Part shown: in pieces, positions 11,061-15,855 of the stretch
Layout of the letters: the number at the start of each line of letters is the position of its first letter
Position numbering within the stretch: the stretch's first letter is position 1
Position numbers and translations under genes: made by a program
Notes under the pieces: generated by a model
What the model saw: only the letters and a program-made list of their open reading frames with translations
What the model was told of the DNA's origin: nothing
Database searches by the model: none
Origin: Coprobacillaceae bacterium
GTDB lineage: Bacteria; Bacillota_I; Bacilli_A; Erysipelotrichales; Coprobacillaceae
Reading direction: 5' to 3'
Assembly (NCBI GenBank): GCA_963675515.1
Contig: OY776328.1
Coordinates: 990,001-1,022,000 of the forward strand
DNA: 32,000 bases

Positions 11061-12440
11061 ATGGCTGAACCGGTAAAGAAATCTTTTTTCAACAGTAATG
11101 TGGATTTGTTGAATGGATCAATATTCAAAGCATTGATTGTTTTTATGATCCCTCTGTTCATTTCGAATATCTTCCAACAATTGTATAACACTGTTGATAC
11201 AATGATTGTCGGCAATTATCTGGGAGATGTGTCATTGGCGGCTATTGGCTCTTGTACTTCAATCTACGACTTATTGGTAGGATTTGGACTTGGGATTGGC
11301 AATGGCCTGGCTATTGTTACTGCAAGGAGTTTTGGTTCCAAAGACGAAAAACTGTTGAAAAAATCAGTTGCCAGCTCCATTGTAATTGGGATTGTGGCAT
11401 CGTTGATCATTACAATACTGGGTAGCCTGATTCTAAGACCGTTATTGGAGCTGTTGAATACCCCGCTTGAAATCATCAATGAAGCCTATAGCTATATCAG
11501 TGCAATCACATTGTTCATAATTGTGATGTTCGCATATAATCTTTGTGCCGGTTTGCTCAGGGCAATCGGCAATAGTATGGTCCCATTGATGTTTTTGATA
11601 TTGTCATCATGCTTGAATGTCGTTCTGGATATATTATTCATCACCAAATTCTCTATGGGAGTTCAGGGTGCGGCAGTAGCCACAGTTATTTCCCAAGGGG
11701 TATCCGTTGTTCTATGTGTTTTCTATATTTTAAAGAAAACACAAATCCTGATACCTGAAAAGGAACATTTCGAATACGACAATGAATTGTATAAGGAAAT
11801 GGTTGGTCAGGGATTATCAATGGGATTCATGAGTTCAATCGTGTCTGCGGGTTCGGTCATTCTCCAATCAGGAATCAATGGAATGGGGTATCTGACAATC
11901 GCTGGACACACGGCCGCTAGAAGGATTTTCATGTTCTTCAATATGCCGTTTTCATCCTTGGGACTGGCGATGAGTACTTTTGTGTCTCAAAACAAAGGAG
12001 CTGGCCAATATTCAAGAATCAGACACGCTATCAAGATCTGTTACATGTACAACGTCGTCATGACCACGATATGTTGTCTTATCTTATGGCTATTTTCCAA
12101 AGAACTCGTAGCGGCTGTATCGGGTTCAAGTGAAAGTGTTGTCTTAGCCAATGGTTCGCTTTATCTGATGGTTGTTGCCCCGTTCTATGGTATCTTAGGT
12201 GTCCTGATCCAGACAAGATTTTCACTTCAAGGCCTGGGTAAAAAGATGTTGCCGCTGGTATCAAGCATCATTGAGTTTGTCGGAAAGATAATTTTCGTAG
12301 CAATATTCATCCCACGATTTGGCTATCTGGCTGTTATATTCTGTGAACCGGTGATCTGGTGCGTGATGACAATCCAACTGGTTTATTCGTTTTACAACAA
12401 CTCTTATATCAGGAATGCCAATAATAAAGAATTTATCTGA
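11061..12440 (+). CDS. MATE family efflux transporter
   Basis: 459 aa with about 12 predicted TM segments. The N-terminal region LLNGSIFKALIVFMIPLFISNIFQQLYNTVDTMIVGNYLG is the canonical MATE signature region. The RBS is AAGGGAG. Confidence 0.9.
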   Translation: MAEPVKKSFFNSNVDLLNGSIFKALIVFMIPLFISNIFQQLYNTVDTMIVGNYLGDVSLAAIGSCTSIYDLLVGFGLGIGNGLAIVTARSFGSKDEKLLKKSVASSIVIGIVASLIITILGSLILRPLLELLNTPLEIINEAYSYISAITLFIIVMFAYNLCAGLLRAIGNSMVPLMFLILSSCLNVVLDILFITKFSMGVQGAAVATVISQGVSVVLCVFYILKKTQILIPEKEHFEYDNELYKEMVGQGLSMGFMSSIVSAGSVILQSGINGMGYLTIAGHTAARRIFMFFNMPFSSLGLAMSTFVSQNKGAGQYSRIRHAIKICYMYNVVMTTICCLILWLFSKELVAAVSGSSESVVLANGSLYLMVVAPFYGILGVLIQTRFSLQGLGKKMLPLVSSIIEFVGKIIFVAIFIPRFGYLAVIFCEPVIWCVMTIQLVYSFYNNSYIRNANNKEFI

Positions 12441-12580
12441 TGAACTTGTTGGCAATGGCATGCGACTGGTGTCAGCTTTTTAAATAGAGCAGGGGCTTGA
12501 TTACCATCAGTTGCCGGTAGCGGTTGCCTTGTGTTTATACCCTCAGGTTTTCCTGTAACAATCATATCATCGATTAAACA

Positions 12581-12636
12581 AAAAAGTAGAAACACAGTCA
12601 AGACGATTTGTCTTTATCGTGTTTCTACTTTTTTTT
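12581..12636 (+). terminator. Rho-independent terminator of the MATE gene (long stem with a nested hairpin)
   Basis: AAAAAGTAGAAACAC (12581-12595) pairs with GTGTTTCTACTTTTT (12619-12633). An inner hairpin AAGAC-gattt-GTCTT is present, and a T8 tail follows. Confidence 0.85.
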
Positions 12637-12848
12637 GATAGTCGAGAACACTCGCGACTTTAGTCGTGGAGATGAATCGACATTTTGGGGATTTTTTTAA
12701 CTGTGTTTGATGGTTGCTTTTGTTTTAAATCATATACTTTGAAACAATAATGAAATTGTACTTTTTGTCATACACATGTTAAAATGTATACGAGATAATG
12801 TGGACGGGGTTATTTAATAAGTCAAAAAAAAGAAATAAGGTGATGATG

Positions 12849-13988
12849 ATGTTGCACCATAAGGCATACAAGTTCAGGATCTACCCTAATAGTGAACAGG
12901 AAATATTGATCTGTAAAACGATCGGGTGTGCCCGGTTTGTCTATAATCATTTCCTGAATCTGTGGAATGAGGAGTATGACAGTACCGGTAAAGGTTTGAA
13001 TTACAATTCCTGCTCCGCCATGCTTCCGCAAATGAAGCGGGATGATAATACTATCTGGCTCAAGGACGTAGACAGCATTGCCCTCCAATCGTCATTGAAG
13101 AATCTCTCCGATTCATTCGCAAGGTTCTTCATGAAGCAAAACAGCCACCCAAGATACAAAAGCAAGAAGAATCCGGTTCAAAGCTACACGACCAAAAACG
13201 TGAACAACAGTATTGCCGTAATTGGCAAATCGATCAAGCTGCCCAAGCTAGGTCTGGTGAGATTCGCCAAGAGCCGGGAGATCAAAGGAAGGATCATTAA
13301 GGCGACTATTCGGAAAAATCCCAGTGGCAAATACTTTGTTGCCGTTGTCGTTGAAGAAAAGATTGAGCAATTGCCCAAAACAAATTCGACAATAGGTATT
13401 GACCTTGGTATCTGTGACTTCGCGACATTTTCAAATGGCAGAAAAGTCGCCAATCATAAGTTTACCAACCAAATGGAGAAGAAACTTATCCGTGAACAGA
13501 AAAAGCTGTCAAGAAGGGCGCTCCTTGCCAAAAGCAAAGGAATCAATCTTCTTGAAGCAAAGAACTACCAGAAACAAAGACGCATAGTGGCATTGCTTCA
13601 TGAAAAGGTAATGAACCAACGCAATGACTTTTTGAACAAGTTGACAACCCAGATCATCAAAAACCACGATGTCATCTGTGTCGAAGACTTGAACACAAAA
13701 GGAATGTTGCGTAATCATAGACTGGCTAAAAGCATATCCGATGTTTCCTGGTCGGCCTTTGTGGATAAGCTAATCTACAAGGCTGAATGGTATGGCAAAG
13801 AAATCATCAAGGTGGACCGCTGGTATGAGTCTAGTCAAAGATGCCACAAATGTGGCCACAAGGATGGCAAGAAGCCACTCCACATCAGGGAATGGACTTG
13901 TCCTATTTGCGGCAGCACCAATGACAGGGATATCAATGCGAGCAAGAACATACTGAAAGAAGGACTGCGCATAATAGCACAGTCCTAG
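12849..13988 (+). CDS. tnpB: RNA-guided DNA endonuclease TnpB (OrfB_IS605/IS1341 type)
   Basis: N-terminus KAYKFRIYPN. RuvC-I is IGIDLG, RuvC-II is VICVEDL, the zinc ribbon is CHKCGH...CPICGS, and RuvC-III is NDRDINASKNI; all catalytic residues are intact. I prefer the start at ATG 12849 (AAGGTGA RBS at 12837-12843); 12843, 12846 and 12798 are alternatives. Confidence 0.9.
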   Translation: MLHHKAYKFRIYPNSEQEILICKTIGCARFVYNHFLNLWNEEYDSTGKGLNYNSCSAMLPQMKRDDNTIWLKDVDSIALQSSLKNLSDSFARFFMKQNSHPRYKSKKNPVQSYTTKNVNNSIAVIGKSIKLPKLGLVRFAKSREIKGRIIKATIRKNPSGKYFVAVVVEEKIEQLPKTNSTIGIDLGICDFATFSNGRKVANHKFTNQMEKKLIREQKKLSRRALLAKSKGINLLEAKNYQKQRRIVALLHEKVMNQRNDFLNKLTTQIIKNHDVICVEDLNTKGMLRNHRLAKSISDVSWSAFVDKLIYKAEWYGKEIIKVDRWYESSQRCHKCGHKDGKKPLHIREWTCPICGSTNDRDINASKNILKEGLRIIAQS

Positions 13989-14120
13989 ACAATTACTAAA
14001 CCGTAGGAACTACGGGGATAGCTTGGTAAACAAGAGAAACCGCTGAGTATGGTGGATGCACCATACTCAAGTAAGCTCTGTTCCCAAGAATCCCGTGACT
14101 TCAGTCATGGGAGGTTCAAC
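13989..14120 (+). ncRNA. Putative omega RNA (reRNA) 3' scaffold of the TnpB element; the 5' end probably lies inside the tnpB 3' coding region
   Basis: A dense run of hairpins sits between the tnpB stop and the RE: CCGTAG-gaa-CTACGG (14001-14015), CTTG-gtaaa-CAAG (14022-14034), a perfect 10-bp stem GAGTATGGTG-gatg-CACCATACTC (14045-14068), and the RE hairpin (14092-14111). The position and orientation match where TnpB guide RNAs are encoded. Confidence 0.55.
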
Positions 14121-14150
14121 TTCCAAGTTCCTAGGAACTTTAAATTATGA

Positions 14151-15149
14151 TTAGTTGTGAGCTTCTTGGATAGCAACGGCAACAGCTACAGTAGCTCCTA
14201 CCATTGGGTTGTTACCCATACCGATCAATCCCATCATTTCAACGTGGGCAGGTACTGATGAAGAACCAGCGAATTGAGCATCACTGTGCATTCTTCCCAT
14301 AGTATCTGTCATACCGTATGAAGCAGGACCAGCGGCCATGTTGTCAGGGTGTAATGTACGTCCAGTACCACCACCTGATGCTACAGAGAAGTATTTTTTA
14401 CCTTGTTCCAAACATTCTTTTTTGTATGTTCCAGCAACTGGATGTTGGAAACGAGTTGGGTTTGTTGAGTTCCCAGTGATTGAGATATCAACACCCTCAC
14501 GGTGCATGATAGCTACACCTTCTTGAACGTCGTCAGCACCGTAGCAGTTTACTTTAGCGCGAGGTCCGTCTGAATATGATTTACGGAAAACTTCATTCAA
14601 TTCTCCAGTAGCATAGTCATATTGAGTTTCAACGTGAGTGAATCCGTTGATACGTGAGATGATTTTAGCTGCGTCTTTTCCAAGACCATCTAAGATTACA
14701 CGTAAAGGTTCTTTACGAACGCGGTTAGCCGCTTCGGCGATTTTGATAGCTCCTTCAGCTGCAGCGAAAGATTCGTGTCCAGCCAAGAAAGCGAAACATT
14801 TAGTTTCTTCCAATAATAACATTGATCCTAAGTTACCATGTCCCAAACCTACTTTACGTTGGTCAGCAACTGAACCTGGGATACAGAAAGCTTGTAAACC
14901 AACACCGATCATTTTAGCTGCTTCTACTGCAGTAGTTGATCCAGTTTTGATTGCGATTGCAGCACCAGTAATGTATGCCCAACAAGCGTTTTCGAAACAG
15001 ATTTGTTGTGTTGATTTTACGATATCGTAAACATTGACACCTTTAGCGTCACAGATAGCTTTGGCTTCATCCAAATCTTTGATTCCGTATTGAGCTAAAG
15101 TTTCGTTGATTTTATTAATTCTGCGGTCATAACTTTCAAATAATGGCAT
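14151..15149 (-). CDS. GGGtGRT-motif protein (uncharacterised conserved family)
   Basis: It contains the family-defining motif in SVASGGGTGRTLHPDN. Start is at ATG 15149 (MPLFESYDRR), 13 nt after the upstream stop, with AGGAGG between them. Product is 332 aa. Codon use is strongly biased (Ala mostly GCT, Gly GGT). Confidence 0.85.
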   Translation of the reverse strand: MPLFESYDRRINKINETLAQYGIKDLDEAKAICDAKGVNVYDIVKSTQQICFENACWAYITGAAIAIKTGSTTAVEAAKMIGVGLQAFCIPGSVADQRKVGLGHGNLGSMLLLEETKCFAFLAGHESFAAAEGAIKIAEAANRVRKEPLRVILDGLGKDAAKIISRINGFTHVETQYDYATGELNEVFRKSYSDGPRAKVNCYGADDVQEGVAIMHREGVDISITGNSTNPTRFQHPVAGTYKKECLEQGKKYFSVASGGGTGRTLHPDNMAAGPASYGMTDTMGRMHSDAQFAGSSSVPAHVEMMGLIGMGNNPMVGATVAVAVAIQEAHN

Positions 15150-15162
15150 TATCTTCTCCTCC

Positions 15163-15855
15163 TTATTCGCATCTTGGATCGATGTATTTAGCAGCATCTG
15201 CGAATCTACCGTAAGTTTTAGTAGCTTCTTTCATTGCTTCGTTAGCATCCATCCCTTTTTTGATTTTATCCATCATGATACCAAGAGAGATAAACTCATA
15301 TCCACAAGTTTCACCGTCTGCGTCTAAACCTAAACGAGTGATGTAACCTTCAGCCAATTCTAAGTAACGAGGACCTTTATCTTTAGTAGCGTAAGTTGTC
15401 CCAACTTGAGATCTTAAACCTTTACCTAAGTCTTCCAAACCGGCACCGATAGGCAATCCACCTTCAGAGAATGCAGTTTGGCTGCGTCCGTAAACGATTT
15501 GTAAGAATAATTCTCTCATTGCTGTATTGATCGCATCGCATACCAAGTCAGTATTTAACGCTTCCAAGACAGTTCTGCCAACGATAGCTTCTGAAGCCAT
15601 AGCCGCTGAGTGAGTCATCCCTGAACATCCGATAGTTTCAATTAATGCTTCTTCAATGATACCTTCTTTAACGTTTAACGTTAATTTACAAGCACCTTGT
15701 TGAGGAGCACACCAACCAACCCCATGAGTTAATCCTGAAATATCAGTGATTTGTTTTGAGTATACCCATTTTCCTTCTTCTGGAATTGGAGCGCAACCAT
15801 GCGATGCACCAATTTTGACACATTGCATTTGTTCTACTTCGTGTGTGTAATTCAT
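15163..15855 (-). CDS. NifU/IscU-like Cys-rich protein, the usual partner of GGGtGRT proteins
   Basis: It is about 230 aa with conserved-looking Cys residues (CVKIGASHGC, GWCAPQQGAC, IGCSGMTHS). It is translationally coupled to the downstream GGGtGRT gene. I prefer the start at ATG 15855 (MNYTHEV) because AAAGGAG lies about 10 nt upstream; 15876 is the alternative. The family assignment is from memory of how such neighbours are annotated. Confidence 0.65.
   Translation of the reverse strand: MNYTHEVEQMQCVKIGASHGCAPIPEEGKWVYSKQITDISGLTHGVGWCAPQQGACKLTLNVKEGIIEEALIETIGCSGMTHSAAMASEAIVGRTVLEALNTDLVCDAINTAMRELFLQIVYGRSQTAFSEGGLPIGAGLEDLGKGLRSQVGTTYATKDKGPRYLELAEGYITRLGLDADGETCGYEFISLGIMMDKIKKGMDANEAMKEATKTYGRFADAAKYIDPRCE

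Follow-up and report, generated by a model that had tools for sequence, protein, structure and literature searches.

In the window, the 32,000-nucleotide stretch of DNA analysed here, a tnpB gene lies between a MATE gene and a GGGtGRT-family gene with no tnpA beside it. What kind of element does this gene belong to, and which TAM would its nuclease require? A reading made from the letters alone, the sequence-only reading, had proposed a TnpA-less IS605-family insertion of about 1.48 kb at the MATE terminator, with an intact TnpB and TTGAT as target and TAM. The insertion is real. A 1.49-kb element adjoins the T-tail of the strong terminator hairpin (Table 1), and its assignment to IS200/IS605 is supported by TnpB domains, subterminal hairpins and a Y1 tnpA in sister copies. 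The motif is not supported. Very probably, the window carries one of ten copies with full-length tnpB of an ISDra2-like IS200/IS605 insertion sequence, with tnpA deleted internally, TTTAT as the family TAM and a TnpB-omega-RNA product expected. The element family would move as single-stranded DNA via the Y1 transposase TnpA ("peel and paste"), inserting 3' of TTTAT without target duplication and ending in TTCAA.

Table 1. Positions of the element, its parts and its neighbours in the window
Feature	Position	Strand	Basis or remark
MATE gene	11061-12440		MatE Pfam match
Terminator hairpin 3' of MATE gene	12580-12634	+	DNA fold -16.9 kcal/mol, z -6.0
IS200/IS605 element	12635-14119	+	1.49 kb; directly 3' of the MATE-gene terminator T-tail
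Non-canonical left tip TTGATA	12635-12640	+	Alignment of 16 left ends
Conserved left-end core	12641-12685	+	41 nt, 100% identical to several sisters
Left-end interior / former tnpA leader	12686-12797	+	Only ~75% identical to sisters
tnpA remnant	12798-12848	+	Degenerate start region plus last ~25 nt of tnpA; ~50 nt (L005 alignment)
RBS AAGGTGA of tnpB	12837-12843	+	
tnpB	12849-13988	+	379 aa; Pfam HTH_OrfB_IS605, OrfB_IS605, Cas12f1-like_TNB, all above cut-offs
Putative omega-RNA (reRNA) scaffold	14001-14119	+	30-sequence covariation, single-sequence fold, covariance model
H1	14001-14006 with 14010-14015	+	5' hairpin of scaffold
P2	14022-14026 with 14084-14088	+	Scaffold
P3	14033-14036 with 14076-14079	+	Scaffold
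P4, variable hairpin	14042-14050 with 14063-14072	+	Includes 10-bp stem
RE hairpin	14092-14111	+	Loop UUCA at -20 to -17; scaffold 3' end GUUCAA
Right cleavage motif (TEM) TTCAA	14115-14119	+	Nine sisters and relatives end here; L002 empty site
Predicted native 16-nt guide CTTCCAAGTTCCTAGG	14120-14135	+	Flanking DNA; length by analogy with ISDra2 (PMC10097598)
GGGtGRT-family gene	14151-15197	-	Convergent; its stop codon adjoins the predicted guide region

Ten full-length tnpB genes of this element family are present in the genome, the window copy included. The nine sister copies share 89-92% DNA identity with it across tnpB and the right end (RE), and each has a tnpA ORF of 122-142 aa. Y1_Tnp matches in the genome number ten, of which eight are intact, one carries a stop and one is truncated; sister tnpA matches the Pfam Y1_Tnp profile with E 3.7e-41. 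In the window copy, the ORF list and an alignment with a sister copy agree that 12635-12848 is without tnpA. Pairwise alignment with sister L005 shows ~370-385 bp of tnpA missing, and an internal microhomology deletion would have removed it. The remnant is joined at a TTAT microhomology, with the junction after 12813, and is in frame with tnpB, resulting in a 396-aa ORF from 12798. Because the genome carries tnpA-bearing sisters, eight of the nine with an intact tnpA, the window copy is a deletion derivative; tnpA is absent from this copy as proposed, but the copy is not a distinct TnpA-less kind of element. With tnpA deleted, it would be movable only with TnpA supplied by sister copies, and could in principle be mobilised by them in trans. 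Absence of tnpA does not exclude membership in IS200/IS605, since tnpB-bearing members often show it. A tnpA can be identified close to only ~25% of tnpB genes, and many ISGst2 copies in Geobacillus stearothermophilus are without one; for these copies, mobilisation in trans is predicted (Meers et al., bioRxiv 10.1101/2023.03.14.532601). The window copy differs in this from ISDra2 of Deinococcus radiodurans, yet biologically it is routine: the IS605 family is most commonly met as copies with TnpB and an omega RNA but no tnpA (Meers et al., bioRxiv 10.1101/2023.03.14.532601).

Structures of the ISDra2 TnpB-omega-RNA complex are available (8EXA, 8H1J, 8BF8). The window TnpB aligns full length with ISDra2 TnpB (8EXA, 8H1J; E 2e-84, residues 1-373, 43% identity), and the claim of an intact 379-aa protein with D-E-D triad and zinc ribbon is borne out by this alignment and by three Pfam domains. 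The RuvC triad D185/E279/D361 aligns with ISDra2 D191/E278/D361 and the cysteines C332/C335/C351/C354 with C331/C334/C351/C354 of its CCCC zinc finger (ISDra2 positions from PMC10097598). Relative to its sisters, tnpB has a dN/dS of 0.08-0.10 at dS 0.39-0.50. Eighteen nucleotide changes are unique to the window tnpB, and four of them alter an amino acid (E73D, R189C, K246I, I331R). The Lys replaced in K246I is invariant in 21 relatives and corresponds to ISDra2 K245, in a RuvC helix region contacting RNA; the change might weaken activity. From its sequence, the protein is predicted to be a guide- and TAM-dependent nuclease. It is 29 aa shorter at the C-terminus than ISDra2 TnpB, and the scaffold therefore lies almost wholly downstream of the tnpB stop codon.

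Which TAM this nuclease would use is best read from the sisters. In 15 other left ends (LE) in the genome, six variable bases separate TTTAT from GTCGAGAAC; the element begins with these six, and TTTAT is 18 nt 5' of the hairpin. TTTAT is equally far from the hairpin in relatives from Oceanobacillus, Ornithinibacillus, Cerasibacillus and an Erysipelotrichaceae MAG. One sister copy has an empty site in the genome G001, ...GGCCTTTTTAT/ATTGAGGAGG..., which reads ...TTTAT/ATTGAGG across the joint. The occupied sister site, ...TTTAT/TATCTGGTCGAG...GGTTCAA/ATTGAGGAGG, matches it exactly. Excision of sister L008 in silico with these boundaries gives a 134-aa ORF spanning the joint. The sister left ends, the relatives in other genera and the sister empty site thus all give TTTAT, not the TTGAT at 12635-12639. 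The family TAM is TTTAT, and that of the window TnpB itself would be the same. Insertion 3' of TTTAT without target duplication is seen for the family; the homologous flank of the window copy is TTTTT. In plasmid-interference assays, by ChIP-seq and with a TAM library, ISGst2 TnpB2 of G. stearothermophilus was likewise shown to use TTTAT as its TAM (Meers et al., bioRxiv 10.1101/2023.03.14.532601), a likeness drawn from the published description.

The residues of TnpB that contact the TAM are informative as well. In the window TnpB these positions are Y52, S56, S76, I77, Q80, V118 and N119. From ISDra2 to the window TnpB, the TAM contacts K76, F77 and T123 become S, I and V. Lys76 of ISDra2 reads the G of its TTGAT (PMC10097598), whereas Ser takes its place here and the family TAM is TTTAT. 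S76/I77 is found in the window TnpB and all sisters, and TTGAT is the flank of both Gracilibacillus relatives that have K76/F77. A third class in the TnpB clade has K52/F56/L77/A80 with a TTTAA flank. We give an even chance to the proposition that three features change together: TAM position -3 (G for TTGAT, T for TTTAT), TnpB residues 76/77 (K/F vs S/I) and the position 6 nt 5' from the foot of the LE hairpin (C vs A); were this causal, the clade would be a series of joint TAM and target reprogramming and the window TnpB a compact TTTAT-specific nuclease. The correlation between residues 76/77 and TAM is a small, testable aid for sequence-based TAM prediction.

The LE hairpin (12653-12668; stem CGCGAC/GTCGTG, loop TTTA) and the RE hairpin (14092-14111), both confirmed in sequence and fold, are related sequences and conserved in all copies; both are imperfect, and the element has no terminal inverted repeats, in line with IS200/IS605. 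IS608 of Helicobacter pylori likewise has subterminal hairpins, a left cleavage site ~18-19 nt 5' of the hairpin foot, a right cleavage site 10 nt 3' of the hairpin foot with no target duplication, TCAA as the right site and GAAT 5' of the RE hairpin (PMC3201880). Its target is TTAC rather than TTTAT, and the likeness is one of ends. Proposed TnpA guide bases, AACA at 12647-12650, lie inside the LE core, and TnpA would be directed to its cleavage site by the base that stands 6 nt 5' from the hairpin foot. The tentative pairing rule between guide and cleavage site holds for the RE and for the classes with TTTAT and TTGAT, but the TTTAA (type-2 hairpin) class does not fit it in the same register.

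Could the window copy nonetheless be a TTGAT user? The element would then start at 12640, with TnpA cleaving after TTGAT (12635-12639) and TnpB reading TTGAT as its TAM. That pentanucleotide is the exact ISDra2 target and TAM (PMC10097598), the window TnpB is a close ISDra2 relative, and the Gracilibacillus relatives of the same clade use it. However, cleavage would fall 13 nt from the hairpin foot, against 18 nt in the 15 sisters and the relatives; even the TTGAT-using Gracilibacillus copies have their cleavage site 19 nt away. The bases 5' of the window hairpin (GAGAACACT) are identical to those of TTTAT-flanked sisters, whereas TTGAT-flanked relatives (GCGCAAACT) differ at the position that would pair with G, according to a pairing rule inferred from IS608 (PMC3201880). 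The window TnpB also has S76/I77 and not K76/F77. We consider a TTGAT-specific window copy quite improbable. For anyone using the 379-aa TnpB, TTTAT rather than TTGAT is the motif to test, and the TAM should not be inferred from this copy's own flank because its left tip is atypical.

At that tip, TTGATA holds the place of the sisters' first six element bases (TAACTG, AAACTG or TATCTG). By homology with sister copies, TTTTT (12630-12634, the last five T of the terminator) occupies the TAM position. LE matches in the genome and family all start at 12640 or 12641 and none covers 12635-12639; a search of 81 genomes of the taxonomic family found no left end with a TTGATA tip like that of the window copy. 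Homology only places the element start at TTGATA and the flank at TTTTT. With this boundary, the unoccupied site is expected to be ...CTACTTTTTTTT joined to CTTCCAAG; the boundary first proposed would give ...TTTTTTGAT joined to CTTCCAAG. Because the tip is atypical (TTGATA for TAACTG, with TTTTT at the TAM position), excision of the window copy is possibly impaired. Precise excision would leave a donor joint of TTTTT and guide, probably a poor substrate for the element's own nuclease.

The same tip raises the possibility, tentative and on balance unlikely, of a normal TTTAT insertion that later lost its TAM and first six bases through a small rearrangement; with tnpA deleted there would be no excision, and TnpB and omega RNA would be decaying leftovers. 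A sharp break in identity is what such a history would leave: over 41 nt the LE core shows 100% identity with sisters, and then 5 of 11 upstream positions mismatch. A similar interior recurs in just one other left end (G000:1176528), and there the canonical TTTAT/TAACTG is present. The loss of tnpA and the K246I change at an invariant position fit as well. Decay, however, is hard to square with an intact ORF in which only four of the 18 unique nucleotide changes alter an amino acid, or with a scaffold whose covariance score equals the range of its sisters (135 bits vs 130-143). The six tip bases vary between genera, so that a tip may differ without having been truncated, and TTTT at the canonical distance would keep the three canonical pairs proposed for the AACA guide. 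We favour a deletion derivative with a TnpB-omega-RNA product. Its left-end interior contains a conserved extended -10-like motif, TGTTAAAAT, at 12777-12785, with TTGTAC 18 nt upstream (12756-12761). A promoter role for these motifs is conjectural; a consensus scan returned no site at 12756-12785.

Between the tnpB stop and the RE, an omega-RNA scaffold had been proposed as four consecutive hairpins. A scaffold is supported there by a covarying fold of 30 sequences, but it consists of a single hairpin at the 5' end, a stem nested in three tiers and the RE hairpin. The consensus fold has 24 pairs with 98.1% of cells paired and compensatory change in 8 of the 24; none of 500 shuffles was as good, and slid controls gave at most 3 pairs. 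The single-sequence fold has a z of -6.8. The perfect 10-bp stem pairs 14045-14054 with 14059-14068, as had been noticed. A covariance model (R1) finds 10 whole scaffolds and one split scaffold in the genome. No Rfam family matches the scaffold at its gathering score. A weak Rfam match to Ref70, an Enterococcus sRNA (E 0.6), was discarded, as it was not reproduced on Enterococcus relatives. Also discarded was a GGGAU/AUCCC helix of the single-sequence fold, which changes inconsistently across relatives and competes with the RE hairpin.

The RE hairpin tetraloop at -20 to -17 has the position of ISDra2 omega-RNA stem 4, and the GAA at -32 to -30, the scaffold end GUUCAA and a guide directly after the RE are shared with ISDra2 (PMC10097598). 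On the 5' side of the scaffold, H1 with its loop of 3 nt has no simple mapping onto ISDra2 stem 1 and pseudoknot. Separately, we observed that an ISDra2-like pseudoknot of the 3' UUC with an upstream GAA has two candidate partners, the H1-loop GAA and the GAA at -32 to -30, in columns that vary too little for covariation to test it.

The RE hairpin and TTCAA are recognition elements for TnpA on DNA (PMC3201880), and the conserved 130 nt after tnpB might serve solely as a DNA right end for TnpA and encode no RNA. We hold this to be most improbable. IS608 TnpA assays used RE substrates of 45-56 nt that held the hairpin, four guide bases and the cleavage site (PMC3201880), whereas H1, P2, P3 and P4 lie upstream of the region TnpA needs and show compensatory changes. 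The helices are kept from genus to genus, also where the hairpin for TnpA is of another type (T1 vs T2), and the tetraloop, the GAA and the 3' GUUCAA match in position the solved ISDra2 omega RNA. As an RNA gene, the scaffold would be transcribed from about 14000 to 14119 and processed, with a guide of ~16 nt drawn from the flank. The TnpB-omega-RNA nuclease would then cut DNA in which TTTAT (not TTGAT) is followed by a guide match. All copies diverge right after GGAGGTTCAA; nine sisters and the L002 empty site, whose joint is exactly after TTCAA, place the right end of the element at 14119. This agrees with the earlier suggestion that the RE ends in TTCAA and the guide starts near 14120. No second guide match (up to 3 mismatches) beside TTTAT is present in the genome.

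No empty site of the window copy was found in two other species of the genus (G001 and G002), which have no left-side synteny and in which the MATE gene is not adjacent to the GGGtGRT gene. Metagenome contigs scanned for exact patterns of the left and the right flank gave no hit, and looking up the GGGtGRT neighbour by its exact protein sequence gave none either. For the MATE protein, a single contig is known. The terminator hairpin 3' of its gene has a bidirectional look, with an A-tract on the 5' side and the T-tail on the 3' side.

The element begins directly after the T-tail of a strong hairpin, which lies downstream of the MATE-family gene and carries an A-tract on its other side. tnpB is the only long ORF of this 1.49-kb element, and no further protein domain was found between the left end (LE) and tnpB of the window copy. 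The genome of the window, G000, is one contig of 2.88 Mb and holds nine further copies, with 89-92% identity across tnpB and the right end (RE). All nine have a 122-142-aa ORF directly upstream of tnpB, overlapping or abutting its start and coding for a Y1 transposase (Y1_Tnp, E 3.7e-41). A whole-genome scan of G000 returned ten Y1_Tnp matches, of which eight are intact while one has a stop and another is truncated, and ten full-length tnpB genes of the family, the window copy being the sole one among them without tnpA. Aligned pairwise with a complete sister, the window copy retains the LE core, a diverged leader (~75% identity), ~30 nt around the old start of tnpA and the final ~25 nt of that gene. 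Some 370-385 bp are absent, and the deletion joint lies at a TTAT microhomology after 12813, where GGTTAT meets TTAATAAGTC. The tnpA remnant is in frame with tnpB, giving a 396-aa ORF that starts at 12798. The sequence-only reading had described a TnpA-less element; this holds for the window copy itself, but that copy arose by deletion from an autonomous IS, and the intact TnpA of its sisters is available in trans. Copies without tnpA are the commonest state among tnpB-bearing elements (bioRxiv 10.1101/2023.03.14.532601).

Features of the locus, the element and related sites in G000 (window coordinates unless a contig is named)
Feature	Position	Details
MATE-family gene	11061-12440	Pfam MatE match
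Strong hairpin downstream of MATE gene	12580-12634	-16.9 kcal/mol, z -6.0
LE subterminal hairpin	12653-12668	CGCGAC-TTTA-GTCGTG
tnpB ORF	ATG at 12849	379 aa; HTH_OrfB_IS605, OrfB_IS605, Cas12f1-like_TNB
H1	14001-14006 / 14010-14015	U-A to C-G in four sequences
P2	14022-14026 / 14084-14088	nearly invariant
P3	14033-14036 / 14076-14079	compensatory change in two pairs
P4	14042-14050 / 14063-14072	compensatory change in five pairs; contains the 10-bp stem first noted
RE subterminal hairpin	14094-14109, extending to 14092-14111	CGTGAC-TTCA-GTCATG
GGGtGRT-family gene	14151-15197	minus strand, convergent; stop codon 32 nt beyond the element's end
RuvC catalytic triad	D185/E279/D361	ISDra2 D191/E278/D361; residue roles PMC10097598
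Zinc finger	C332/C335/C351/C354	ISDra2 C331/C334/C351/C354; residue roles PMC10097598
Group II intron sites	G000:C1:2487420-2491729; G000:C1 ~2490700-2494550; G000:C1:1846608	first is sister copy L004; last on minus strand
TNB-domain fragments and weak covariance-model match	G000:C1:340253-340450; 343951-344148; 633551-633657	match of 27 bits

The related subterminal hairpins reported at both ends are real. The target motif is a different matter. G000 contains 16 LEs of the family, and 15 of them consist of TTTAT, six semi-variable bases and GTCGAGAAC. The six tip bases are TAACTG in 11 cases, the others being AAACTG, TATCTG, TAACCA and TAACTA, and the sequences upstream of TTTAT are unrelated. 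TTTAT also lies 18 nt from the hairpin foot in Oceanobacillus (two species), an Erysipelotrichaceae MAG, Ornithinibacillus and Cerasibacillus, where the six tip bases are quite different from those of G000. Sister L002 sits in a thrS leader, and its true empty site is present in G001, another species of the genus. The empty site reads ...GACGGAGGCCTTTTTAT followed directly by ATTGAGGAGGAAT..., and the occupied site reads ...GGCCTTTTTAT, then the element from TATCTGGTCGAG... to ...GGAGGTTCAA, then ATTGAGGAGGAAT.... Removal of sister L008 from a toxin gene in silico at equivalent boundaries yields a 134-aa ORF across the joint. Together, these LEs, the flanks of relatives, the empty site and the excision ORF indicate insertion 3' of TTTAT without duplication. 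This geometry agrees with the model for IS608, where cleavage occurs 19 nt 5' of the hairpin foot at the left end and 10 nt 3' of it at the right (PMC3201880). TTGAT, earlier taken as both flank and TAM of the window copy, is not supported by the sister LEs, the relatives or the L002 empty site, all of which have TTTAT. In Oceanobacillus locisalsi (L040), as at L002 in an unrelated genome, the element lies just downstream of a T-box leader; the match at L040:633-908 scores 86.7 bits, below the 93-bit gathering score, and ends ~145 nt before the TTTAT target.

How TnpB reads the TAM can be considered from ISDra2, in which Y52 and S56 read the -1 T of TTGAT, Q80 the -2 A, K76 the -3 G by a bidentate hydrogen bond anchored on F77, F77 and T123 the -4 T, and N124 the -5 T (PMC10097598). 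The window TnpB and all nine sisters share Y52, S56 and Q80 with ISDra2 and differ at S76, I77 and V118. Within one TnpB clade, three TAM classes follow these contact positions. Two Gracilibacillus massiliensis copies (L049, L055) with Y52/S56/K76/F77/Q80 are flanked by (TT)TTGAT, 19 nt from the hairpin. All members checked with S76/I77 (Y/S/S/I/Q) are flanked by TTTAT, and copies from Amphibacillus and Ligilactobacillus (L045-L048) with K52/F56/L77/A80 (K/F/S/L/A) by TTTAA; L040, L041, L044 and L058 were the other relatives compared. At the base 6 nt 5' of the LE hairpin foot, the TTGAT class has C and the TTTAT class A. Because TAM choice belongs to the protein, TTTAT is the predicted motif, and we consider it very probable that the window TnpB uses it. 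The same TAM has been characterised experimentally for TnpB2 of ISGst2 (bioRxiv 10.1101/2023.03.14.532601). The window copy is an ISDra2-like IS200/IS605 element with a predicted ISGst2-type TAM and IS608-type end geometry. What is gained is a correction of both TAM and left boundary, along with the correlation of residues to TAM.

The left tip of the window copy itself is unusual. A 41-nt core from GTCGAGAAC on is 100% identical to several sisters, and the bases 5' of it are TTTTTTTTGATA. By position, TTGATA stands in place of the first six element bases and TTTTT (12630-12634) in place of the TAM, and similarity matches to this LE, both in G000 and across 81 genomes of the taxonomic family, all begin at 12640/12641. 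We lean towards insertion at a near-cognate TTTTT within the terminator T-tail, with a diverged tip. The six tip bases are not kept between genera, the AACA (12647-12650) 5' of the hairpin is the same as in sisters, and several sister copies come after terminator T-tails ending in TTTAT; the family seems often to land at terminator ends. The abrupt stop of identity at the LE core would fit a later small rearrangement that deleted TAM and tip, as would the canonical TTTAT and TAACTG of the only other LE with a similar interior, and we hold this to be a less probable course. That the element starts after TTGAT, as first proposed, is very doubtful. We infer from IS608 (PMC3201880) a pairing rule between guide and cleavage site for TnpA. 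It suits the RE, where GAAT would pair with TCAA, and both the TTTAT and the TTGAT class, with CAAA against TGAT in the latter, but fails for the type-2 class in the same register. By this rule AACA would pair with T-T-x-T, so that TTTT would fit as well as TTAT and TGAT would not. Under either near-cognate insertion or rearrangement, precise excision would leave TTTTT and the guide, and since this joint lacks the A read by Q80, the element's own nuclease would probably cut its empty site poorly. The terminator palindrome, GTAGAAACAC...GTGTTTCTAC (12582-12636), is ~80% like a sequence repeated at least five times in another genome, G024, near contig ends (C12, C23, C27, C28, C34), and also found at G002:C1:1842621-1842681 in a second congeneric species. 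The G024 repeat appears to be the end of some other repeated element, ...GTGTTTCTACTTTTTATTATGC.

The right boundary stands as proposed. In all sisters and type-1 relatives the element closes with GGAGGTTCAA, and the flanks differ directly beyond it, which places the RE of the window copy at 14119 and the guide start at 14120. Its native 16-nt guide is predicted to be CTTCCAAGTTCCTAGG, and no second match with up to three mismatches adjoins TTTAT anywhere in G000.

For the omega RNA we aligned 30 sequences, comprising ten copies or relatives with the same RE hairpin type, other sisters, and 16 with a different, longer RE hairpin type. Conservation is high over the 100 nt upstream of the TnpA hairpin, including in sequences where that hairpin is exchanged. 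The RNAalifold consensus has 24 pairs, 8 of which vary on both sides, and 98.1% of its cells are paired. The observed covariation was not matched by any of 500 column shuffles, although this overstates significance because the sequences are related to one another. Better arguments are the slid controls, which gave at most three pairs, and the changes that arose independently in different genera. Folding of the single sequence gives a z of -6.8. A covariance model from the alignment recovers ten whole scaffolds in G000 (135 bits for the window, 112-143 for the other nine) and one further scaffold split in two; Rfam has no family for this RNA. The landmarks of the solved ISDra2 omega RNA, an RE hairpin tetraloop at -20 to -17, GAA at -32 to -30 and a 3' end of GUUCAA (PMC10097598), are likewise placed here, whereas its stem 1 and pseudoknot do not map simply onto the 5' part. 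The conserved fold supports a predicted omega-RNA scaffold 3' of tnpB, but in place of four consecutive hairpins it has a single hairpin and the RE hairpin, with a nested stem of three tiers between them.

Residues 1-373 of the window TnpB align with ISDra2 TnpB (8BF8, 8EX9, 8EXA, 8H1J) at E 2e-84 and 43% identity, and its three Pfam matches score over curated cut-offs. Comparison with sisters gives dN/dS of 0.08-0.10 at dS 0.39-0.50, which marks the copies as old lineages kept by purifying selection. The window tnpB has 18 unique nucleotide changes, four of which alter an amino acid (E73D, R189C, K246I, I331R). Position 189 is variable among relatives (T, S or R). K246 (codon 13584-13586) is invariant in 21 relatives and corresponds to ISDra2 K245, which sits in a basic RuvC helix region contacting RNA (PMC10097598). 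The nuclease had been called intact; its D-E-D triad and zinc cysteines are kept, but K246I, unique to the window copy, is the sole visible blemish and may reduce activity.

Across the 81 genomes searched from the taxonomic family, the element was confined to the window's genus. The closest relatives of the element, found in Bacillaceae, Enterococcus and Ligilactobacillus, suggest that it arrived horizontally. The single G001 copy (L027, G001:C47) and a copy in the MAG Erysipelotrichaceae bacterium STE_120 (L042, JAQVDW010000029.1) have an identical flank, which probably places the window's genus in Erysipelotrichaceae. Two sister copies carry group II introns in the LE hairpin region. There, ...GTGACTTTAGTCATG is followed by GTGCGAAACG..., a typical GUGCG intron 5' end directly after the hairpin; in L004, which has two Rfam Intron_gpII (RF00029) matches of 61 and 50 bits, the remainder of the LE picks up again beyond the intron 3' end. 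The intron seems to home to the IS hairpin as though to a terminator stem-loop. A 45-nt mini-element at G000:C1:2671291-2671345 (plus strand) has one hairpin, combining the 5' part of the LE with the 3' part of the RE, and consists of TAACTAGTCGGGAACACTCGGGACTTAAGTCTTGGGAGGTTCAA between TTTAT and ATTGTC; it may represent either a minimal derivative of PATE-like type or a relic of the family with fused ends. Outside the ten-copy family, two more TNB-domain fragments, whose open frames measure 153 and 118 aa and one of which has a stop, and the weak covariance-model match are probably relics of another TnpB lineage.
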